Shown here piece by piece: positions 3,498 through 40,087 of a stretch of DNA of 41,005 bases. The stretch's first letter is position 1. The number at the start of each line of letters is the position of its first letter. A program made the position numbers and the translations under genes. This DNA comes from an uncultured Candidatus Peribacteria bacterium (GTDB lineage: Bacteria > Patescibacteriota > Gracilibacteria > Peribacterales > Peribacteraceae), in the NCBI GenBank assembly GCA_964478005.1, contig CAYZGJ010000002.1, positions 1-41,005 of the forward strand, in the 5' to 3' direction. The notes under the pieces are model-generated. The model was not told the origin of the DNA. It did not search any database and was given only the letters and a program-made list of their open reading frames with translations.

Positions 3498-4271
3498 ATG
3501 CCTGACCGCCGCCCCCTCATCGCCGCGAATTGGAAAATGTATGCCCCGCCGGACGGATGGGACGCCGACGATTCGCCGTATCATTCCACCAAAGACGTCG
3601 ACGTCATCGTCTTTCCCACGATGCTCGATCTCGTCGCCTGCATGAGAGAGGAACTGATCACCGGAGCGCAGTGCGGCCGGGCTGAGGAAGCGGGCGCCTT
3701 CACCGGCGATGTCTCCATGCGGATGCTCGCGCACATCGGCTGCAGCCACGTCCTCTGCGGCCACTCCGATCGGAGAGCGTTCCATGGCGAAACCGATGCG
3801 GACATCGCCAAGCAAGTCGTCGCCGCGCTGGAGGCGGAGATGATCCCGATCCTGTGCATCGGCGAAACAGGAGAAGAACGGAAAGCGGGACGATCCGAAG
3901 AAGTCATCAGAAGGCAACTGGAAGCAGTGCTGACGGAAATGCAACATGCACAATGCAACATGCAACATGATGGATTCGTCATTGCATATGAACCTGTCTG
4001 GGCCATCAGCCGCGGCGATCCGTCGACTCCCTCCGCGACGCCCGAAGAAGCGCAGCGCATGCATGCCTTCATCCGCGCAACGCTCACATCTCACCACTCA
4101 CATCTCACATCCGTCCGCCTTCTCTACGGCGGCTCGATGAACGCCGACAACGCCGCCGCCCTGCTCGCACAACCGGACATCGACGGCGGACTCGTCGGTG
4201 GCGCATCCCTCAATCCAAAGGAGTTCCAATCGATTGTGGACGCCGCCGCATCGGCGTACGGTGGGCATTAG
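3498..4271 (+). CDS. tpiA: Triosephosphate isomerase
   Basis: IAANWKM, CGHSDRR, IAYEPVWAI, YGGS and VGGASL motifs. Confidence 0.93.
   Translation: MPDRRPLIAANWKMYAPPDGWDADDSPYHSTKDVDVIVFPTMLDLVACMREELITGAQCGRAEEAGAFTGDVSMRMLAHIGCSHVLCGHSDRRAFHGETDADIAKQVVAALEAEMIPILCIGETGEERKAGRSEEVIRRQLEAVLTEMQHAQCNMQHDGFVIAYEPVWAISRGDPSTPSATPEEAQRMHAFIRATLTSHHSHLTSVRLLYGGSMNADNAAALLAQPDIDGGLVGGASLNPKEFQSIVDAAASAYGGH
3939..3966 (+). repeat. In-frame heptamer array (ATGCAAC x4) inside tpiA
   Basis: atgcaac|atgcaca|atgcaac|atgcaac encodes ...EMQHAQCNMQH... in the variable loop before IAYEPVWAI. Confidence 0.85.
4083..4110 (+). repeat. In-frame heptamer array (CTCACAT x4) inside tpiA
   Basis: ctcacat|ctcacca|ctcacat|ctcacat encodes ...LTSHHSHLTS... 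in the variable segment before YGGS. Confidence 0.85.
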
Positions 4272-6291: not shown

Positions 6292-6430
6292 ACATTGAAT
6301 GGAATGCTGGCGTTCTATGAACGAAAAGAACGGCGAAAGGGGCTCCATTGTGGGCAAAAGGAGGCACGGGGGCAAGTCTTTTCTCTCTCCCCCCCCTCGC
6401 GGCACGCCCCGGGGCCGATACGATGGCTCC

Positions 6431-7510
6431 ATGCAGCCGCACAACGCTCTCCTCTGGTGGTGGTTGGGGATCCTGGATTTTCGCCGCTACGAGCTGCTCC
6501 AGCAGTACTTCGGCGATCTGGACACCGCGATCGAAGAACTCTCGCCCGAGGTCTTGCGCGGCCTCAAGCTGCGCCCGGATACCGCAGACCGCGTGCTGGC
6601 CCGGCGGGAGGCGTTTGATCCGCACAGGTATCAGCAGGAAATGGACCGGCGCGGTGTGCGGCTGGTCTCCATCGAGGACGAGGAATACCCGCCGCTCCTG
6701 CGGGAGATCGGGGATCCGCCGGTGTTCCTCTCCGGCCGGGGCGATTGGTCGCTGCTGTGCCGCCCCCTCATCGCACTCGTCGGGACGCGGGCGATGACGT
6801 CGTACGGGAGGCGCGTGGTGGAGGCGTTCGTGCCGCCGCTGGCGCGGGCGGGGTTCGTGACGGTGAGCGGGCTGGCACTGGGCATCGATGCCGCGGTGGC
6901 GCGACAGAGTCTCGCCCATGACGGACCGACCATTGCGGTGCTGGGCAACGGGCTGGGGTCCGTCTACCCCCCGGAGAACCGCGACCTGGCGGACGACATC
7001 CTGCAGGCTGGAGGATTGCTCATCAGCGAGTTTCCGCTGGAAGCGGTGCCGGGCAAGTACACGTTCCCCTCGCGCAACCGCATCATCGCGGGCCTGTGTC
7101 CCGGAACAGTGGTCTGCGAAGCGCCTGCGCAAAGCGGCGCGGTGATCACGGCGGAACTGGCGCTCGAATACGGGCGGGAGGTCTTCGCGGTGCCGGGTGT
7201 GATCTTCGACGAGATGCGGGCGGGCTGTCATGCGCTCATTGCGAAAGGAGAAGCGCGGCTCGTCTCCTCGGCTGCCGACCTGCTGCGGGAGCTGGGCGCC
7301 GCGCCGGCCGCGGAGCAGCCCGTGCTCTACGCGCCGACGGATCCGCACGAAAAGCTCCTCTACGCCGTTCTCTCCGCCCTCCCGCAATCCCTGGATGATC
7401 TGGCCGAACAGACGGATCTGGATGCAGCGCAGATCGGGGTGGCGCTGACCATGATGGAACTCGCCGGCGGCGCGCGGAACGTGGGCGGCGGGCAGTGGGT
7501 GCGCTCCTAA
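6431..7510 (+). CDS. dprA: DNA-processing protein DprA/Smf
   Basis: ATG 6431 in ORF 6299..7510. VGTRAMTSYG...VSGLALGIDAAVARQSL...IAVLGNGLGSVYPPEN...FPSRNRIIAGL...VCEAPAQSGAVITAELALEYGREVFAVPG. Confidence 0.9.
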   Translation: MQPHNALLWWWLGILDFRRYELLQQYFGDLDTAIEELSPEVLRGLKLRPDTADRVLARREAFDPHRYQQEMDRRGVRLVSIEDEEYPPLLREIGDPPVFLSGRGDWSLLCRPLIALVGTRAMTSYGRRVVEAFVPPLARAGFVTVSGLALGIDAAVARQSLAHDGPTIAVLGNGLGSVYPPENRDLADDILQAGGLLISEFPLEAVPGKYTFPSRNRIIAGLCPGTVVCEAPAQSGAVITAELALEYGREVFAVPGVIFDEMRAGCHALIAKGEARLVSSAADLLRELGAAPAAEQPVLYAPTDPHEKLLYAVLSALPQSLDDLAEQTDLDAAQIGVALTMMELAGGARNVGGGQWVRS

Positions 7511-7568: not shown

Positions 7569-9782
7569 TCACTCCCCCGCGCACTCCGGCACGGTCCCCG
7601 TGAGGACCTCACAGCGCAGGGTGCTGGCAGCGTTCACGCACTGATCCTCTCCCATGCCGCCGTCCAGCGCGTTGGTACCGCCGCCGCCGTCCATGCGATC
7701 ATCCCCCATGCCCCCCAGAAGAATGTCATCGCCCGCGCCGCCGCACGCGACATCCTCTCCCATCCGTCCGTCGATCCGATCCTTCCCCGGACCGCCGAAC
7801 AGCTTGTCGTGTCCCATGCCGCCGTCCAGGTCATCGTCCCCCTCGCGGCCGTAGAGGATGTCCTCCCCCATGCCGCCCCGCAGCGTGTCGTTGCCGCTGC
7901 CGCCGTCCATCCAGTCATGCCCGAACCCGCCATCGATGGAGTCGTCCCCGCCCAGGCCGCAGATCACGTCATTGCCAGACCGCCCCTTGATATCGTCGGG
8001 GCCCTCCGTCCCTACGATGACGTCGTCGCCGAACGTGCCGCGCAGTTTCCCGTCATACACGTCGCCGTCATCGCGGCCGCCCACGATGATGCCGTCGCGG
8101 ACGTAGATCGTCGCCGTCTTCCCGTTGCACTGCGGCGCGGGTCCGCCCACGGGAGGCACGCTGCTCACGCTCGACGCGCTGCTCACGCTGCTCATCCCGG
8201 ATGACACCGAAGACCCTCCGCCGGGACACCCGTCGGCCAGCGTGCCGACTTCCGCCGCGGAAAGCGCCCGACCGTAGATGCGGACGTCATCCAGCGCGCC
8301 GCGGTAGCCGGGTTGCAGTTGATAGCCGCCCAAGAGCAGATCGTGCGGCGAGGCGATGCTGCCGACCGGTGCGGTGTGCGTTCCGATGAGGACGCCGTCG
8401 ACATAGGTGCGGATCGTCAGGTCGGATCCGTTGCGCTCGTAAACGCCCGCCACGTGGTGCCACTGGCCGTTGAGGACCGACGAGGCATGCGCCGTGTCAT
8501 GCGTGCCGCCGTCGCCGTAGCCGAAGAAATTCACGCGGCCGTCGGGATCCAGGAACAATCCCCAACCGCGGTGGCCGCCCGTCACCGGACCGAACGTGCC
8601 CAGCACACCGCGTCCTCCCTCTTCCGGCCGGAGGAAAGCGGAGACCGTGAAGGAACCGGTGCCGAAGGCGAAGTGCGTCCCCGCCACGCGCGTGCGGTCG
8701 TCGATACCGTCGTACGATGCCGCCCAGGGATTGTGCGACAGAACCGTCGCGCCGGTTACGTGCGCGGGCCCGTTCTCGTGCGTCCCATGGACGCCGCCGC
8801 TCACGGCATTCTGCGCCTGCGTGCCGGAGCCCTCGTCAAACTTCCAGTGCGCCATCAGGGTGCCGGCCGGGCACTGGCCCACGGGCGGCGCGCTGCTCAC
8901 GCTCGACACGCTGCTGACCATGCTGGAGGTGGTGCCGGGACTGCCTGGACTCGAGACGCTGCTGATGCTCGAGACGCTTCCGGGACTCCCCGGAGAGGAC
9001 ACGCTGCTGATGCTCGACAGGCTACTCATCATGCTGGATACGCTGCCCGGACTGGCCGGAGAGGACACGCTGCTGATGCTCGAGACGCTGCTGACGGAGG
9101 ACGCGGCCGTGCCGTAGTCGACCGTCACGAAGATTTGCGTGGCGCGCAGCCCGCTGTTGGAGTCATTGTTGGAAAAGAAGCCGACCTGCAGCGCATCGAC
9201 GCCCGCTTTCGTCCAGGCGGCTCCGGTGTGCGGATCCGTCGCATACGTCCGGCAGTACTGCGCGTACGGGGTATTGTTGCCGCTGCCGATCCCCGGCCAC
9301 TCCACCTTCGTGCCCCAGCTCTCGGTGGTGCCACTCTTGAGGCCGACGAATCCTCCCCGCTGGTCGGTATCCGCCCGGCGCATGACCGCGCAGAGCTGGA
9401 TGCTATTGATCACGGTCCCCGTGGCGAAGGCGGGATTCGTCAGCGTGTAGAGGTCTCCGTGATCATCGCCGGTTGTCTCCACGTAACTGGTGTCGCCGTC
9501 GTGGGACGGGCTGTCATCCAGGTTCGCCCACCGTGCGGGGCCCGCCACGGGCACGCCGGTGAAGGACTGGGCGGCATTCTCGCCGTCCTTATTATTGGGA
9601 ATCCCCTGTCCGACGGGAGTGTCGCCGGGACCGTTGGGATAGAGGATGGTCGTCGCCGCAGAGGCCGGCGTGACGGACCAGGAAGACAGGCTGCCCGCCA
9701 GCAGCGCCACCAGAAGGATGGCCGCCGCCGCGATTGCCATAACGCGCGATGATGGTGCAAAGGGTGCGAGCTCCATAGGCAT
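7569..9782 (-). CDS. Large secreted protein: signal peptide, N-terminal domain, Ser-rich linker, LamG/ConA-like lectin domain, Ser-rich linker, RTX (GGxGxD) calcium-binding repeats
   Basis: ATG 9782 (MPMELAPFAPSSRVMAIAAAAILLVALLAGSLSSWSVTPASA). The LamG-like segment HWKFDEGSG...LDDVRIYGRALSAAEV maps to about 8235-8860. RTX repeats GNDVICGLGGDDSIDGGFGHDWMDGGSGNDTLRGGMGEDILYG... map to about 7640-8040. Confidence 0.8.
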   Translation of the reverse strand: MPMELAPFAPSSRVMAIAAAAILLVALLAGSLSSWSVTPASAATTILYPNGPGDTPVGQGIPNNKDGENAAQSFTGVPVAGPARWANLDDSPSHDGDTSYVETTGDDHGDLYTLTNPAFATGTVINSIQLCAVMRRADTDQRGGFVGLKSGTTESWGTKVEWPGIGSGNNTPYAQYCRTYATDPHTGAAWTKAGVDALQVGFFSNNDSNSGLRATQIFVTVDYGTAASSVSSVSSISSVSSPASPGSVSSMMSSLSSISSVSSPGSPGSVSSISSVSSPGSPGTTSSMVSSVSSVSSAPPVGQCPAGTLMAHWKFDEGSGTQAQNAVSGGVHGTHENGPAHVTGATVLSHNPWAASYDGIDDRTRVAGTHFAFGTGSFTVSAFLRPEEGGRGVLGTFGPVTGGHRGWGLFLDPDGRVNFFGYGDGGTHDTAHASSVLNGQWHHVAGVYERNGSDLTIRTYVDGVLIGTHTAPVGSIASPHDLLLGGYQLQPGYRGALDDVRIYGRALSAAEVGTLADGCPGGGSSVSSGMSSVSSASSVSSVPPVGGPAPQCNGKTATIYVRDGIIVGGRDDGDVYDGKLRGTFGDDVIVGTEGPDDIKGRSGNDVICGLGGDDSIDGGFGHDWMDGGSGNDTLRGGMGEDILYGREGDDDLDGGMGHDKLFGGPGKDRIDGRMGEDVACGGAGDDILLGGMGDDRMDGGGGTNALDGGMGEDQCVNAASTLRCEVLTGTVPECAGE

Positions 9783-9958
9783 GGGTGGAAAGATATAAGG
9801 AGGGAACACATTCCAGACGGGGCGGGGCAGGGGCTCTGGCAGAGAAGGAAGAGGAAAATGGTCTGCAAGGACAATCCCGGCCGCATCCGCAGATTCGCAG
9901 GCACCGACCGCATTTGATCGACAGAACAACATGTTTGACGACGACGCAATACAGGAGA

Positions 9959-35312: not shown

Positions 35313-35418
35313 ACGGGGATAAGTAACAAGCGCCTGGCGGTTCATCTGGTCCGCTTGGTCGGCTCCGCCACGGGCGGACGAACGGCAGACTGGAACACAG
35401 GCAACGGAAAGTGCGGGC

Positions 35419-35447
35419 AGCTTAGAAACATTGCCGAAGAGAGTCAA
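35419..35447 (-). promoter_or_regulatory. Sigma70-type promoter TTGACT-17-TAAGCT with upstream A-tract, driving the rplC-led ribosomal operon
   Basis: The minus strand reads ccaaaaaatcaTTTGACTctcttcggcaatgtttcTAAGCTgcc. Lies about 100 nt upstream of the rplC ATG. Confidence 0.55.
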
Positions 35448-35542
35448 ATGATTTTTTGGCTTGCCGGGAAATTCATCCGGTTCCGTCAGAGCCTCCGCCC
35501 CCGCCCGTCAGGAATATCCCTCCCCTTTCCCCCTCCTTATCT

Positions 35543-35869
35543 ATGCAACGCTCCACCACCACGACCCTCCTGACCGTCGCGGCCCTCTCCGCCGGCATTG
35601 GCATCGCCGCCTACGAGCTCTACACCCGGCCACGTCTGCGCCGCAGGATGCAGGCCCGGACGTACGAAACCATGGCGATGGCCCTCGCTCCCCTCTCCCG
35701 CATGACCAACCGCTCCCGCCGGAACCTCGGACGCCGCTTCGGGATGGACGACGTCGCCCGCGACGCGGAGAAGAAACTCGCCCGCGCCGAGCGGAAGCTC
35801 TCCCGCACCGAGCGCCGCCTGCGCGATGAGGCCGAAGCCGAGCGCCTGGCGGGAATGGTGGGGATGTAG
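35543..35869 (+). CDS. Hypothetical small membrane-anchored coiled-coil protein (YtxH-like appearance)
   Basis: ATG 35543 in ORF 35456..35869. TM helix LLTVAALSAGIGIAAY, then an Arg/Glu-rich helix. Confidence 0.55.
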   Translation: MQRSTTTTLLTVAALSAGIGIAAYELYTRPRLRRRMQARTYETMAMALAPLSRMTNRSRRNLGRRFGMDDVARDAEKKLARAERKLSRTERRLRDEAEAERLAGMVGM

Positions 35870-35887
35870 GGATGGCTCCACGCAACG

Positions 35888-37174
35888 TTATCGCACTGCG
35901 CTGATCTGCTTCATGCGCGTGAATGCGCGTGTCCCATGCTTTCCCAGGGCCATGCCGAATCCGCTGTCTTTCCAGCCACACCACACTCCTTCCAGAAATG
36001 GAAGATTCGCATCGTTCTGCCAGACCATTCCGACATGTAATTGTGAGGCAATCCTCTGAAACGCCTCTGCGTCCGCTGTCCAGACCGATGCGCCGAGGCC
36101 ATAGGGTGTCTGATTGGCAAGGGAGATCGCTTCTGCCTCGGAAGTGAAACGATGCACGGGGAGGATCGGCCCGAATGTTTCTTCTTTCCACAGAAGACCT
36201 TCCGCGCTGTCGCATTCCAGCACTGTCGGCTCGATGCGCTCTGCCTTCTCATCGATCGTGCCACCCGTCACCACCCGGCACCCGCGGGAGCGCGCATCCT
36301 CCAGATGGTGCCGCACGATGTCAAACTGCTCCCGGGATGCAAAGCGCGTCCTGGGTTGCGCGCGCACCGCATCTTTCAATGCGTCCAGGAATGCATCGGC
36401 GATATCCGCGTGCACGAAGACGCGCTCCACGGAGGTGCAGCACTGTCCGTTGTTCATCATTCCATGGAGCGCAATCAACGCAGCGGTTTGCTGCAAATCA
36501 CAATCCGGCAAGATGATGGCCGCATCCTTCCCACCCATTTCCAAAAGACAGGGAATCATATTTTCACCGCAACGTCGCGCAATCTCTTTCCCCACCTTCG
36601 TCGATCCCGTAAACGAAATCATATCGACATCCGCTTCCACCAATGCGCGGCCCGTCGCGTCATCGGAGGGAAGAACCTGCAACACACCTTCCGGCAGTCC
36701 TGCTTCCGTGAAGATGCGCTCGATCCACTGGGCCGTTTCCGGTGTGAGGGGAGACGGCTTGAACAAGACGGCATTCCCCGCCATCAGCGCGGGGGCGATG
36801 GTCCAGAGCGGCGTATCCAGCGGGAAGTTCCACGGCTTGATCGCACCAATGACGCCGAGCGGCTCAAAGTGCAGCATGGTGGAACGCGCGTTCGCCGTCT
36901 CTCCTTCGTGCTCCACAGGTTCCGGTGCGAGGTAGGCGGGTGCCTTGGCGGCGAAGAATTCGAGGATCTGCTGAGAGTACGCACAATCCGAGAGTGCCTC
37001 CTCCATGAGTTTGCCCATTTCCCTGTTGATCGTCTCCGCTGCTGCCTGACAATGCTCCCCCAGCACCTGACTCGCTTTGCGGAGCACGGCGGATCGCTCT
37101 TTCATGGACTCTGCCGCCCACTGCTTCTGCGCTGCGCGCGCTTGTCGGATATGCGAGGAAAGATCAGGAGTCAT
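35888..37174 (-). CDS. Aldehyde dehydrogenase family protein
   Basis: ATG 37174 in ORF 35888..37327. KPWNFPL, FTGSTKVGKEI, LEMGGKD, NNGQCCTSVERVFV, EETFGPILPV. Confidence 0.88.
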   Translation of the reverse strand: MTPDLSSHIRQARAAQKQWAAESMKERSAVLRKASQVLGEHCQAAAETINREMGKLMEEALSDCAYSQQILEFFAAKAPAYLAPEPVEHEGETANARSTMLHFEPLGVIGAIKPWNFPLDTPLWTIAPALMAGNAVLFKPSPLTPETAQWIERIFTEAGLPEGVLQVLPSDDATGRALVEADVDMISFTGSTKVGKEIARRCGENMIPCLLEMGGKDAAIILPDCDLQQTAALIALHGMMNNGQCCTSVERVFVHADIADAFLDALKDAVRAQPRTRFASREQFDIVRHHLEDARSRGCRVVTGGTIDEKAERIEPTVLECDSAEGLLWKEETFGPILPVHRFTSEAEAISLANQTPYGLGASVWTADAEAFQRIASQLHVGMVWQNDANLPFLEGVWCGWKDSGFGMALGKHGTRAFTRMKQISAVR

Positions 37175-37238
37175 GGTGAAGAGTGTAATGCTCCCATGAT
37201 GTATTACCAATTGAATAATCACCTCCACCATCCCCAAC

Positions 37239-37267
37239 CTGACAAAGTACAAAATTCCCGCTATCCT
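37239..37267 (+). promoter_or_regulatory. Promoter cTGACA-17-TATCCT placed 7 nt before ATG 37275 (leaderless configuration)
   Basis: ctgaca (37239-44), 17-nt spacer, tatcct (37262-67), ctctgcc, ATG. The -10 box lies inside the 33-bp direct repeat. Confidence 0.4.
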
Positions 37268-37290
37268 CTCTGCCATGGACCCCATCCGTC
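37258..37290 (+). repeat. 33-bp perfect direct repeat, copy 1 (contains the -10-like box, the ATG and the first 5 codons, MDPIR)
   Basis: ccgctatcctctctgccatggaccccatccgtc is identical to 37962-37994. Confidence 0.95.
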
Positions 37291-37832
37291 CAGCAGAACG
37301 GATCGCCATCCTGGTGGACGGCAGCAACCTCTACCACTATCTGCGCGAACTACAATTGCGCGGACTTGCTGAGTTGGACTACCGGGCGTTTGCACAGCAG
37401 CTCGCGCACGGTCGCACTGTTGTTTCTGCCACATATTACATCGGCAAGGTACGATCGCATGGTGATGCCAAGGGGGAAGAGCTGCGCAAGTGGCAGCAAC
37501 GACTCGTCGCTCGGCTGCAGCAGATGGATTGGAGGGTGGAATTCGGACACATGATGGAAAATCGCGGCGTTTTTCAGGAGAAAGGCGTCGATGTCCACAT
37601 GGCCGTCGATCTGCTTACGGGTGCGTACGATGACCGGTATGACACAGCCGTGCTCGTGAGTTCCGATACGGATCTCATCCCTGCGATTCGCTGCGTCCGA
37701 CAGAAGGGGAAATCTGTCGAGTACGTCGGCTTTGCTCATCGTCCCTCATTCGGACTGATCAAGAACGCGGATGTCACGACGACGCTGCGTTTGCCGGATC
37801 TCCTTCCATTGCTCCGCAATACTCAACCATAA
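37275..37832 (+). CDS. NYN (LabA/DUF88-like) domain protein, predicted RNase
   Basis: IAILVDGSNLYHYL...KGVDVHMAVDLL...AVLVSSDTDLIPAI.... Confidence 0.85.
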   Translation: MDPIRPAERIAILVDGSNLYHYLRELQLRGLAELDYRAFAQQLAHGRTVVSATYYIGKVRSHGDAKGEELRKWQQRLVARLQQMDWRVEFGHMMENRGVFQEKGVDVHMAVDLLTGAYDDRYDTAVLVSSDTDLIPAIRCVRQKGKSVEYVGFAHRPSFGLIKNADVTTTLRLPDLLPLLRNTQP

Positions 37833-37833
37833 A

Positions 37834-37870
37834 ACCCGCCGTCCGCCGAAGCGGAGGGACGGGTGGGTTT
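37834..37870 (+). terminator. Terminator-like hairpin after the NYN gene
   Basis: acccgccgtccgc-cgaa-gcggagggacgggt, then gggttt. About 12 bp with a small bulge and a short T-run. Confidence 0.5.
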
Positions 37871-37961
37871 AGTACATCTATTGTATCTCTATTCAGACAT
37901 ATTGCAAGTGCGGAGGCGGCCATTTTGTCTGACATCTCCTGCTTCTCCTCCCCGGTAAACA

Positions 37962-37994
37962 CCGCTATCCTCTCTGCCATGGACCCCATCCGTC
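37962..37994 (+). repeat. 33-bp perfect direct repeat, copy 2 (lysS start region)
   Basis: Identical to 37258-37290. Confidence 0.95.
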
Positions 37995-40087
37995 ATCAGA
38001 AAGCAGAGAAGATCCGGGCCGCGGGCGGACAGCCCTACGCCGCGACGTTTGATCGCAGTCACGCCTTGCAGGAAGCGAAGGAGCAGCCCGACGGCACGCA
38101 GGTGTCGATCGCCGGGCGCGTGATGCTGCTGCGCGACATGGGCAAGATGCTGTTTGCAACCCTGCAGGACCACACGGGCAGGTTGCAGATCGCGCTGAAG
38201 GTCGATCAGATCGGACAGGAGGAGTACGACCGCTTCGTCGCTCTCGTGGACCTGGGCGACATCATCGGCGTCACGGGCGAGCGATTCGCAACCCAGCGGG
38301 GCGAGCCGACGGTGGGCGTCACCAAGTGGACGATGCTCAGCAAGGCGCTGCGCCAGCCGCCGGAGAAGTGGCACGGCGTCAGCGACCAGGAAACGCTGTG
38401 GCGCCAGCGCTACCTCGACCTCACGTCCAACCGCGCCACCTTCGATCGCTTCCTCTTCCGCAGCCGGTTCCTGAAATTCCTGCGTGAGTTCTACTGGGAA
38501 CAGGGATTCACGGAAGTGGAGACGCCCGTGCTGGTGAATGCCGCGAGCGGCGCGCTGGCCACGCCCTTCCGGACCCATCACAACGCGTACGATACCGATG
38601 TCTTCCTGCGCATCGCGCCGGAAACCTACCTGAAGGAGTGCATCGTGGGCGGCTTCGACCGCGTGTTCGAGATCGGCCGCGTCTTCCGCAACGAGGGCCT
38701 GGACCCCTCCCACCTGCAGGACTTCACGATGGTGGAGCACTACGCGGCATACTGGGACTACACAGACAACATGGCCTTCACCGAGGCGATGCTCTCCACC
38801 GTGCTGGAGAAACTGGTCGGAACCCTGAAGGTGCAGATTCCCGACCGCGACGGCAGCCTGGTGGAGGTCGCCTTCACCCCGCCCTGGCCGCGGCTGTCCC
38901 TGCGCGAAGTCATTCAACGCGATTGCGGGATTGACATCGAGGTGTGTGATTCCGCTTCAGCCCTGCGGGAAGCCGTAAAAGCAAAGAACATCCGCCTGGA
39001 AGTGGACATGGAAACGCTGGGACGCGGCAACCTGATCGACCAGCTGTACAAGAAGGTCAGCCGGCCCTCCATCGTCCAGCCGACCTTCATCACGCAACAC
39101 CCCATCGACCTCTCGCCGCTGGCGCGCACGAATAATGCCAACCCCCAGATCACCGATCGGTTCCAGCTGGTGGTGGGCGGCTGGGAGATCGTCAACGCCT
39201 ACAGCGAGCTCATTGATCCAGTGGATCAGGCGCAGCGGTTTGAGCAGCAGTCCGCCGCGGCGGACGGCGGCGACAGCGACGCTCACCGCAAGGATGACGA
39301 GTTCGTGACGGCGCTGGAGTACGGCTGCCCCCCCTGCAGCGGCTTTGGCATGGGGATCGACCGCATCGTCGCGCTGCTGACCCAACAGATGAACCTGCGC
39401 GATGTGGTGCTGTTCCCGCTGCTGAAACCAAGCAAGAACCAGAGTCACTCCTTAGCTTCTTTTGATTCCTTAGCTTCCTCTTCATCCATGTCCTCCCCCC
39501 TCCCCCTTCAGCACGCCTCCTACGGCCACCTCCTCCCCGCCGCCCATGCCCTTCTCGAAGCGCACACTGATCAGACCCGCGCGCACCTGATCGCGACCGG
39601 AGCCGCCATGGAGGCATTCGCCAAGCGCTTTGGCGGCGACGAGCAAACGTGGAAGGTGGCGGGCATGCTCCATGATCTGGACTGGGACCAGCTCGACAAG
39701 GACTACGAGGCTCACTGTGGTGACACATTGGAACACCTCCTCTCCACCATCGAGGCGCCCGCGGAACTGCTCGCAGATATCCGCGCACACTACGCCTCCA
39801 AGTACGGAGAGGAATATCCGCTGGATACGATGCTGCGGAAGACCTTGTACTGCGTGGATGAGCTGACCGGCTTCATCATCGCGGTCGCCCTGGTGCGGCC
39901 GAGCAAGAGCCTGAGCGATGTGGAAGTGAAGAGCGTCACCAAGAAGCTGAAGGACAAGGCCTTCGCCGCCCAGGTGGACCGCGCGCAGATCCGCGCGTGC
40001 GAGGAACTGCTCGCGATGCCCCTCGACGAGTTCGTCGGCGTGACGCTGGAGGCAATGAAGACAGTGGCCAAGGACATCGGTCTGTGA
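37979..40087 (+). CDS. lysS: Lysine--tRNA ligase (class II) fused in frame to a C-terminal HD-superfamily hydrolase domain (COG2316-like)
   Basis: ATG 37979 in ORF 37925..40087. The LysRS core runs to ...RDVVLFPLLKP (about 39430). A low-complexity linker follows. From ATG 39488, the HD-type domain contains ...AGMLHDLDWD...CVDELTGFIIAVALVRPSKSLSDVEVKSVTKKLKDKAFAAQVDR.... Confidence 0.88.
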   Translation: MDPIRHQKAEKIRAAGGQPYAATFDRSHALQEAKEQPDGTQVSIAGRVMLLRDMGKMLFATLQDHTGRLQIALKVDQIGQEEYDRFVALVDLGDIIGVTGERFATQRGEPTVGVTKWTMLSKALRQPPEKWHGVSDQETLWRQRYLDLTSNRATFDRFLFRSRFLKFLREFYWEQGFTEVETPVLVNAASGALATPFRTHHNAYDTDVFLRIAPETYLKECIVGGFDRVFEIGRVFRNEGLDPSHLQDFTMVEHYAAYWDYTDNMAFTEAMLSTVLEKLVGTLKVQIPDRDGSLVEVAFTPPWPRLSLREVIQRDCGIDIEVCDSASALREAVKAKNIRLEVDMETLGRGNLIDQLYKKVSRPSIVQPTFITQHPIDLSPLARTNNANPQITDRFQLVVGGWEIVNAYSELIDPVDQAQRFEQQSAAADGGDSDAHRKDDEFVTALEYGCPPCSGFGMGIDRIVALLTQQMNLRDVVLFPLLKPSKNQSHSLASFDSLASSSSMSSPLPLQHASYGHLLPAAHALLEAHTDQTRAHLIATGAAMEAFAKRFGGDEQTWKVAGMLHDLDWDQLDKDYEAHCGDTLEHLLSTIEAPAELLADIRAHYASKYGEEYPLDTMLRKTLYCVDELTGFIIAVALVRPSKSLSDVEVKSVTKKLKDKAFAAQVDRAQIRACEELLAMPLDEFVGVTLEAMKTVAKDIGL
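39449..39477 (+). repeat. 11-nt direct repeat TCCTTAGCTTC x2 (18-nt period) in the LysRS-HD linker
   Basis: tccttagcttc at 39449-59 and 39467-77. Related to the CCTTAGT word of the 33908-33935 spacer array. Confidence 0.75.

Follow-up and report, generated by a model that had tools for sequence, protein, structure and literature searches.

Introduction

Transposase-type target-site duplications are about 2–14 bp long and are accompanied by terminal inverted repeats and a transposase gene, and in an integron cassette a promoterless open reading frame (ORF) precedes an attC site whose R''/R' core sites read GTTRRRY, with attI and intI adjacent. Among type I toxin–antitoxin systems, txpA/RatA and bsrG/SR4 have convergent transcripts that overlap at their 3' ends. 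Experiments have demonstrated that horizontally transferred or silent genes can capture promoters through microhomology-mediated duplication or deletion (PMC6614815); that paper also cites a case from the E. coli long-term evolution experiment, in which citT captured a promoter by duplication. Here we analyze a locus of Candidatus Peribacteria in which a perfect 33-bp direct repeat covers the starts of two genes, one for an NYN-domain ribonuclease (RNase) and the other, lysS, for lysyl-tRNA synthetase (LysRS). The DNA is a single whole metagenomic contig of 41,005 nucleotides (CAYZGJ010000002.1), hereafter the window. We consider it fairly probable that the NYN gene captured its promoter and start from lysS through a microhomology-mediated rearrangement.

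A perfect 33-bp repeat at two gene starts

The sequence CCGCTATCCTCTCTGCCATGGACCCCATCCGTC occurs at 37258–37290 (copy 1) and at 37962–37994 (copy 2), both on the plus strand, with 33/33 identity at an offset of 704 bp. Identity ends sharply at both edges of each copy. Shuffling the sequence 100 times gave 0 matches to the 33-mer, so the pair is far above chance, and no third copy was found in the window even when 3 mismatches were allowed. At both copies the hexamer TATCCT is followed by 7 nt (ctctgcc) and then by ATG, and both proteins start with MDPIR. With a 17-nt spacer, the −35 hexamer is CTGACA at copy 1 and TTCTCC at copy 2.

The base composition of the two genes also differs. The intervening DNA has a guanine-plus-cytosine (GC) content of 0.56 vs 0.63 in lysS, and GC at third codon positions (GC3) is 0.63 in NYN vs 0.84 in lysS. 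Native genes have a GC3 of 0.82–0.90; the low value of NYN is approached by a neighboring aldehyde dehydrogenase (ALDH) gene, with 0.68. An earlier note on this DNA, made from the letters alone, had reported the repeat and its spacing, the shared MDPIR start with its upstream box, the AT-richer intervening segment and the good −35 in front of copy 1, and had called for a check of uniqueness; our analysis reproduced all of these observations and found the 33-mer only twice. The same note had raised the possibility that the 33-mer precedes many unrelated genes as a generic promoter. This was not borne out, as none of the 164 related loci contains the 33-mer and its 20-nt promoter part stands before no other gene of the window.

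Copy 2 aligns with the native lysS promoter and start

Copy 2 comprises an extended −10 element (CCGC TATCCT), the 7-nt spacer, the ATG, codons 2–5 and the first base of codon 6 of lysS. The predicted lysS promoter (37942–37978, plus strand) has its −35 TTCTCC at 37943–37948, a 17-nt spacer and its −10 TATCCT at 37966–37971, which lies 7 nt before the ATG at 37979. The gene itself (37979–40087, plus strand) encodes a class II LysRS of 702 aa with a conserved C-terminal extension (tRNA-synt_2, E = 2.1e-78). LysRS was retrieved at full length from 80 relatives with 63–78% identity, nearly all of them labeled Candidatus Peribacteria or Peregrinibacteria of the Candidate Phyla Radiation (CPR). In these relatives the protein starts with MDPIR or with a close variation of it, MD.[IF]R. 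The lysS ATG lies 6–8 nt past the end of a TAnnnT box in 61 of the 70 usable relative loci; the extended −10 consensus is CGCTATnCT, and the −35 is only weak. In three relatives (L013, L021 and L065), the first 18 nt of lysS are identical to the coding part of the repeat (18/18).

On the provenance of the flanks, blastn-short against all lysS-upstream and NYN-flanking regions was uninformative; an answer came only from comparing sequences in register at their −10 boxes. Compared in this way, the 19 nt in front of copy 2 (TTCTCCTCCCCGGTAAACA) and the corresponding stretch upstream of lysS in relative L018 (TTCAACTCCCCGCTGAACA) agree at 15/19 positions, and this is the sole match of at least 13 among ~22,600 registers of lysS-upstream DNA. 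In local alignment, window 37942–37994 is in register with positions −37 to +16 of the L018 lysS. Moreover, TTC occupies the −35 position in 16 of 61 lysS relatives vs a background of 2%, with T at the first position in 75%. MDPIR and the −10 box are conserved in the lysS relatives, and the flank shows homology to the lysS promoter of L018. Copy 2 is therefore read as the original: by these comparisons, it and its flank are the core promoter and start native to lysS and have kept their place.

The C-terminal extension of LysRS spans ~215 aa (residues about 488–702; window 39440–40087) and is also present in the relatives (L001–L080). It has only a weak HDIG/HD-type match (E = 4.5e-4, below cut-off) and no sequence relative among solved structures. 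Should this weak match prove true, a fusion of LysRS to an HD phosphohydrolase would be of interest.

Copy 1 is fused in frame to a foreign NYN gene

Copy 1 is joined in frame to codon 2 (CCA) of the NYN gene (37275–37832, plus strand), which encodes a LabA/DUF88-type, PIN-like RNase of 185 aa with a chimeric N-terminus. The NYN domain is unambiguous (PF01936, E = 1.1e-26; 94.5 bits vs a cut-off of 24.2), all 58 invariant columns of a 21-sequence alignment are kept, including D15, D106, D131 and D133, and the protein matches the PADLOC candidates HEC-09 and NYN. A promoter scan predicts a hybrid promoter at 37239–37267 (plus strand), composed of the −35 CTGACA at 37239–37244, a 17-nt spacer and the lysS-derived −10 TATCCT at 37262–37267. 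Alignment with L018 on both sides places a lineage-specific insert at about 35461–37941, so copy 1 lies inside inserted DNA.

Homologues of the NYN protein have 179–180 aa and start with MP[TA]ERIAIL, and the 185-aa window protein reads MDPIR followed by PAERIAIL. Ahead of the near-invariant E8 and R9, the reading frame offers no start other than the ATG at 37275. Where the repeat meets NYN, one C is common to both. At its left end, the repeat begins where the extended −10 consensus of the lineage (CGCTATnCT) begins; the NYN sequence that was replaced is gone. Since the lysS relatives keep MDPIR and the box, whereas NYN homologues start with MP[TA]ER, the direction of copying points from lysS to NYN. 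Judged from these alignments, lysS sequence has been copied onto NYN and has replaced its native Met and upstream DNA in frame. The exact 185-aa product is absent from the gene-call collection, which implies that this gene was called differently or not at all.

Duplications of this kind were not found elsewhere. The longest repeat involving the start region was 14 nt at 74 lysS loci and 13 nt at 83 NYN loci; because no such repeat exists at either set, capture of the lysS start by NYN is, on this sampling, a one-off event. Moreover, no NYN or ALDH gene lies within 4 kb of lysS in 80 relative loci, and NYN is never next to lysS or ALDH in the 83 NYN loci. The suggestion of the earlier note that linking an RNase to the start of a tRNA synthetase gene may be functionally meaningful thus found no support, with the two genes never neighbors in either set, and their pairing looks incidental across these loci.

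A predicted leaderless expression signal

Leaderless genes have a −10 box ending about 6–8 nt ahead of the start codon and lack a Shine–Dalgarno sequence. The distance between −10 box and ATG, 7 nt at both copies and 6–8 nt in 61/70 lysS relatives, is that of leaderless genes. With its ATG only 7 nt past the −10 box, the NYN mRNA is predicted to be leaderless. Across the window, ATGs with a TAnnnT box at 6–8 nt open ORFs of at least 100 codons in 12 of 19 cases, vs 25% otherwise (P = 6e-4), and ALDH is among these 12. The 33-mer is therefore probably a complete leaderless expression signal: as the −10, the transcription start and the start codon fall within ~20 nt, a 33-bp copy would move transcription and translation signals together and leave a short protein tag. 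In the literature, nothing specific was found on leaderless genes in CPR. Likely starts in the window with TAnnnT 6–8 nt before the ATG, for example at 3498, 9782, 11730, 15184, 26167 and 37174, are likewise predicted to be leaderless.

Proposed rearrangement

We propose that the foreign NYN gene, together with a convergent small RNA gene described below, would first have landed between the rplC operon and lysS, just upstream of the lysS promoter, giving a precursor in which NYN had its own ATGCCAGCA start. A later rearrangement would have set a copy of lysS −17 to +16 before NYN codon 2. The copied unit, reaching from the extended −10 box through the transcription start and the ATG to the fourth codon after it, would have displaced NYN's own −10 and ATG. 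As for the exact path, which was probably microhomology-mediated, we infer two plausible routes. In one, the stretch from NYN codon 2 to lysS +16 would be duplicated in tandem, with one shared C at the join, and the duplication would then collapse between CCGCTATyCT motifs common to the two promoters; in the other, an equivalent template-switch patch would place the copy directly. Either route would yield the observed structure with the 17-nt spacing to the −35 kept. The outcome would be a hybrid promoter with the upstream CTGACA −35 and the lysS −10, a leaderless NYN mRNA and a protein in which MDPIR replaces the native Met, while lysS itself would be unchanged by the rearrangement.

The state before the rearrangement may be approximated by locus L090. 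There, the native NYN promoter (CTGCCAgagttcgatcagc) shares 11/19 positions in register with the 19 nt before copy 1 (CTGACAaagtacaaaattc) and continues CCGCTATTCT, 6 nt, ATG CCC GCA GAA. This resemblance is suggestive of a precursor in which NYN had a promoter of its own that was broadly similar in type.

The event is most likely of a known kind, promoter capture, here in compact and predicted-leaderless form. A resident promoter has been copied to a place before a foreign gene and is itself intact, as expected if the promoter was captured by duplication. The earlier note had mentioned, as its second choice, a recombination giving the incoming RNase the native lysS signals, and this alternative is supported by the native flank of copy 2 and the fusion of copy 1 to a foreign NYN. 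As in the captures described in PMC6614815, a foreign gene gains a resident promoter by rearrangement with the donor promoter left intact, the microhomology proposed for the break points is very short and the fusion junction is near the 5' end of the gene. Unlike those captures, just 33 bp stay duplicated here; the unit spans the −10, the transcription start, the start codon and four codons, both genes being predicted leaderless; and the result is an in-frame N-terminal swap, not a purely transcriptional fusion. It is also a natural event in an uncultured CPR bacterium, with the intermediate unobserved.

Several points weigh against this reading. Its pre-rearrangement state, NYN with its own start upstream of lysS, is unobserved because no close relative was found in any collection searched, the next best LysRS having 76% identity; for a near-identical strain with an empty site, a genome scan gave only relatives at 63–78% and a first metagenome scan gave nothing. 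The microhomology at the right junction is just 1 nt. The locus is represented by one metagenomic contig, and there is no second assembly of the species. Leaderless transcription is a prediction from spacing alone. Finally, the 11/19 match to L090 has a single-test P of ~0.004 and is the best of 35 comparisons, hence not significant on its own.

Alternative explanations for the repeat

The earlier note had preferred a single-gene cassette inserted at the lysS start with duplication of a 33-bp target. In this model, an NYN cassette (37291–37961) would have entered lysS between staggered cuts 33 bp apart. The locus does resemble the target-site duplication of a transposon or insertion sequence, in that perfect direct repeats bracket lower-GC DNA in a repeat–insert–repeat layout; a single event would suffice, and the good −35 before copy 1 could be the original lysS −35. 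However, the model needs native DNA to the left of copy 1 and cassette DNA to the left of copy 2, and the opposite is seen. The last 20 nt of the supposed cassette (37942–37961) are homologous to the L018 lysS promoter and carry a lysS-type TTC −35, and the DNA adjoining copy 2 (15/19 to L018) is thereby native, so the model is refuted on these data. The repeats, moreover, do not surround the whole insert, which extends over about 35461–37941 and includes ALDH; terminal inverted repeats were not found at the ends of the segment between the copies, nor was a transposase or integrase found among the window genes sampled; and no flanking repeat exists at any of the 83 other NYN loci. The length is also far beyond that of target-site duplications: to our knowledge, 33 bp exceeds known transposase duplications, a point on which the earlier note's own reservation was correct. 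We regard target duplication as very improbable. The same stretch of lysS promoter DNA bears on a Campbell-type integration, in which a small circle with NYN, the small RNA and a lysS-start segment would recombine through the 33-bp homology. Repeat–insert–repeat is its expected product, the NYN module is mobile between contexts and some NYN loci are near integrases, but such a circle must carry the native DNA at 37942–37961 and hence derive from a lysS locus, which adds steps; with no integrase nearby in the window and no viral or plasmid-like carrier found, we give this explanation next to no weight. Site-specific integration with attL/attR ends was considered and rejected, as the repeats are not at the island ends and there is no integrase among the insert genes (the small ORF, ALDH and NYN).

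An artefact of assembly or population, in which the 33-bp repeat was misthreaded or a tandem array or strain mixture collapsed, would mean that ALDH, repeat, NYN, repeat and lysS do not follow one another on one molecule. It would be compatible with a whole metagenomic contig and no second assembly of the species, and assemblers commonly use k-mers of about 33 nt. The junction between repeat and NYN nevertheless shares only 1 nt, which cannot arise by k-mer overlap, so the fusion of the lysS start to NYN should be real; the fusion is also in frame, the NYN is full length with every conserved residue, and both copies sit in coherent promoter contexts. We therefore consider an artefact unlikely. 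Selection or ongoing gene conversion could in principle keep the 33-mer identical as a regulatory element, an operator or a translation-initiation signal, coupling NYN and lysS expression and giving the RNase–synthetase pairing a function, which would account for the perfect 33-nt identity and for a −10 box, transcription start and first five codons common to both genes. A recent event explains the perfect identity equally well, though, and a coupling element is hard to reconcile with NYN and lysS never being neighbors in 80 lysS and 83 NYN loci, with the absence of duplication at any other lysS or NYN start (longest repeats, 14 and 13 nt) and with the lack of a third copy in the window or the fetched loci; we judge it distinctly improbable. 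Promoter and start capture from lysS thus remains the explanation that we favor.

A variable region between rplC and lysS

On the minus strand, the window genes at 31.2–35.5 kb share synteny with the region upstream of lysS in relatives. They are rplC, rplD, rplW and rplB, heading a ribosomal cluster that runs on to SecY and RpoA; ribosomal proteins L3, L4 and L2 were identified among the products. In many relatives rplC is divergent from lysS, an arrangement read as ancestral, with about 100–300 bp between them, compared with ~2.5 kb between the conserved promoters in the window. The native promoter region of the rplC operon (35402–35460, minus strand; TTGACT, 17 nt, TAAGCT) forms the left edge of the insert and aligns with L018 positions −176 to −117. 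The insert itself holds a small ORF, ALDH, NYN and the small RNA. Other lineages (L001–L080) carry at the same place a thioredoxin/DsbA-like protein, a protein of unknown family or a cytidylyltransferase-like protein. Because these inserts are unrelated, the rplC–lysS intergenic region is, from the loci compared, a variable spot in Peribacteria.

ALDH (35888–37174, minus strand; PF00171, E = 1e-121) is the second foreign gene. It is a rare accessory gene, with only two homologues above 60% identity. A leaderless promoter is predicted for it on the minus strand (TTGGTA at 37210–37205, 17 nt, TACACT at 37187–37182, 7 nt, ATG), and the arrangement TTGGTR-17-TACACT-7/8-ATG is conserved with the closest homologue, L164. 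ALDH and NYN are adjacent in no other locus, which gives no indication that they were imported as one block. The ATG of the repeat lies within the palindrome CCATGG (37272–37277 and 37976–37981), so the minus strand also reads ATG there, and the source gene call for ALDH (462 aa) begins at this minus-strand ATG inside copy 1. We attribute this apparently misplaced start call to the palindrome; a start at 37174 is indicated by the homologues (429 and 432 aa) and by the conserved promoter.

Between the rplC promoter and the 3' end of ALDH, in a stretch of ~68–70% GC, lies a small ORF (35456–35869, plus strand) with a native-like GC3 of 0.83. It may encode a membrane-anchored, highly charged protein and has no significant Pfam match. 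Elsewhere, the window contains a gene for DNA-processing protein A (DprA; natural transformation) at 6299–7510 (plus strand) and one for a 787-aa protein with laminin-G and RTX repeat domains at 7569–9932 (minus strand).

A predicted conserved small RNA convergent with NYN

The segment between the repeat copies had been described as encoding only NYN. It does not: an apparent conserved small RNA gene with its own promoter runs toward NYN. The predicted RNA (37825–37873, minus strand) is about 45–50 nt long and consists of a 5' tail (CUAAACCC), an 11-bp interrupted hairpin with a UUCG tetraloop and a U-tract over the NYN stop codon. Its promoter, identified by promoter scan, is at 37880–37907 on the minus strand (TTGCAA at 37907–37902, 16 nt, TACAAT at 37885–37880). 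The earlier note had assigned a hairpin at 37834–37870 to the segment as its own terminator; the hairpin is indeed present, but a plus-strand terminator scan made no call, and the structure is here assigned to the convergent small RNA.

The hairpin sequence is conserved across loci whose NYN proteins share just 54–85% identity. A covariance model of the hairpin gave 21 hits at 47.7–72.5 bits, all convergent at NYN 3' ends and with the window hit at 60 bits, and no hits in 44 lysS control loci. Outside the window, the RNA was noted at NYN 3' ends among loci L081–L103. Compensatory changes are found at 4 of 11 hairpin pairs. A promoter of the form TTGAnn-17-TAnnnT at a fixed distance from the hairpin is kept in 14 distinct loci with variable spacer sequence, and only the minus-strand reading gives tetraloops of the types UUCG, GAAA or GCAA. 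Since the folding energy of the hairpin is about equal on both strands and fails to choose between them, the strand call relies on the promoter, the U-tract and the tetraloop types. A search of Rfam with 37100–38100 returned no credible family.

NYN and the small RNA travel together: the 24 close NYN loci occur in 16 unrelated flank contexts, which indicates that the module is mobile. Two of three loci examined gene by gene (L082 and L083) lie among genes for integrases, IS66, a restriction-modification enzyme, Fic or Prim-Pol. No viral carriers of the NYN family were found, and the literature held nothing specific on an NYN gene paired with a small RNA. An integron attC site was also considered for the hairpin and rejected, as the hairpin's own conserved sigma-70-type promoter and its U-tract, both on the opposite strand, give it the look of a transcribed RNA; inspection by eye showed no GTTRRRY core, and no intI is present among the window genes sampled. 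Some NYN homologues (loci L091, L092, L094, L102 and L103; proteins P0020, P0027 and P0035) are called 40–50 aa longer, the ORF reading through the small RNA hairpin (peptide ...EGRVGLV...), which probably reflects a lost stop codon or an over-extended call.

The module resembles type I toxin–antitoxin systems in that a gene is paired with a short, promoter-driven, convergent RNA overlapping the 3' end of its mRNA, and in that it is compact and moves between genomic contexts. The toxins of type I systems, however, are small membrane peptides and NYN is a PIN-like RNase, so the likeness is one of gene layout, conserved promoter and covarying hairpin; the overlap of NYN and RNA may also be just a shared bidirectional terminator. 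With the HEC-09/LabA-like NYN nucleases of PADLOC, the protein has in common a PIN-like RNase domain with conserved acidic residues, often in variable or defence-type neighborhoods, whereas HEC-09 has an extra N-terminal domain and no small RNA partner has been described for it. HEC-09 did not protect against the phages used in its tests (bioRxiv 10.1101/2024.01.29.577857). A speculative and rather doubtful extension would be that NYN and the hairpin RNA form an undescribed mobile two-gene module of Peribacteria and related CPR, with the RNase checked by or acting on the RNA in an RNA-antitoxin or defence-type manner; through the lysS capture, the toxin side would then have been naturally rewired to a housekeeping promoter.

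Implications

The NYN–small RNA module is a more novel lead than the promoter capture and may merit testing as a toxin–antitoxin or defence-type system. For annotators, the locus carries a caution, in that perfect repeats around a foreign gene need not be target-site duplications. If our reading is right, the locus would offer a clean natural example of how a tiny rearrangement can connect a horizontally acquired gene to the expression signals of its host.

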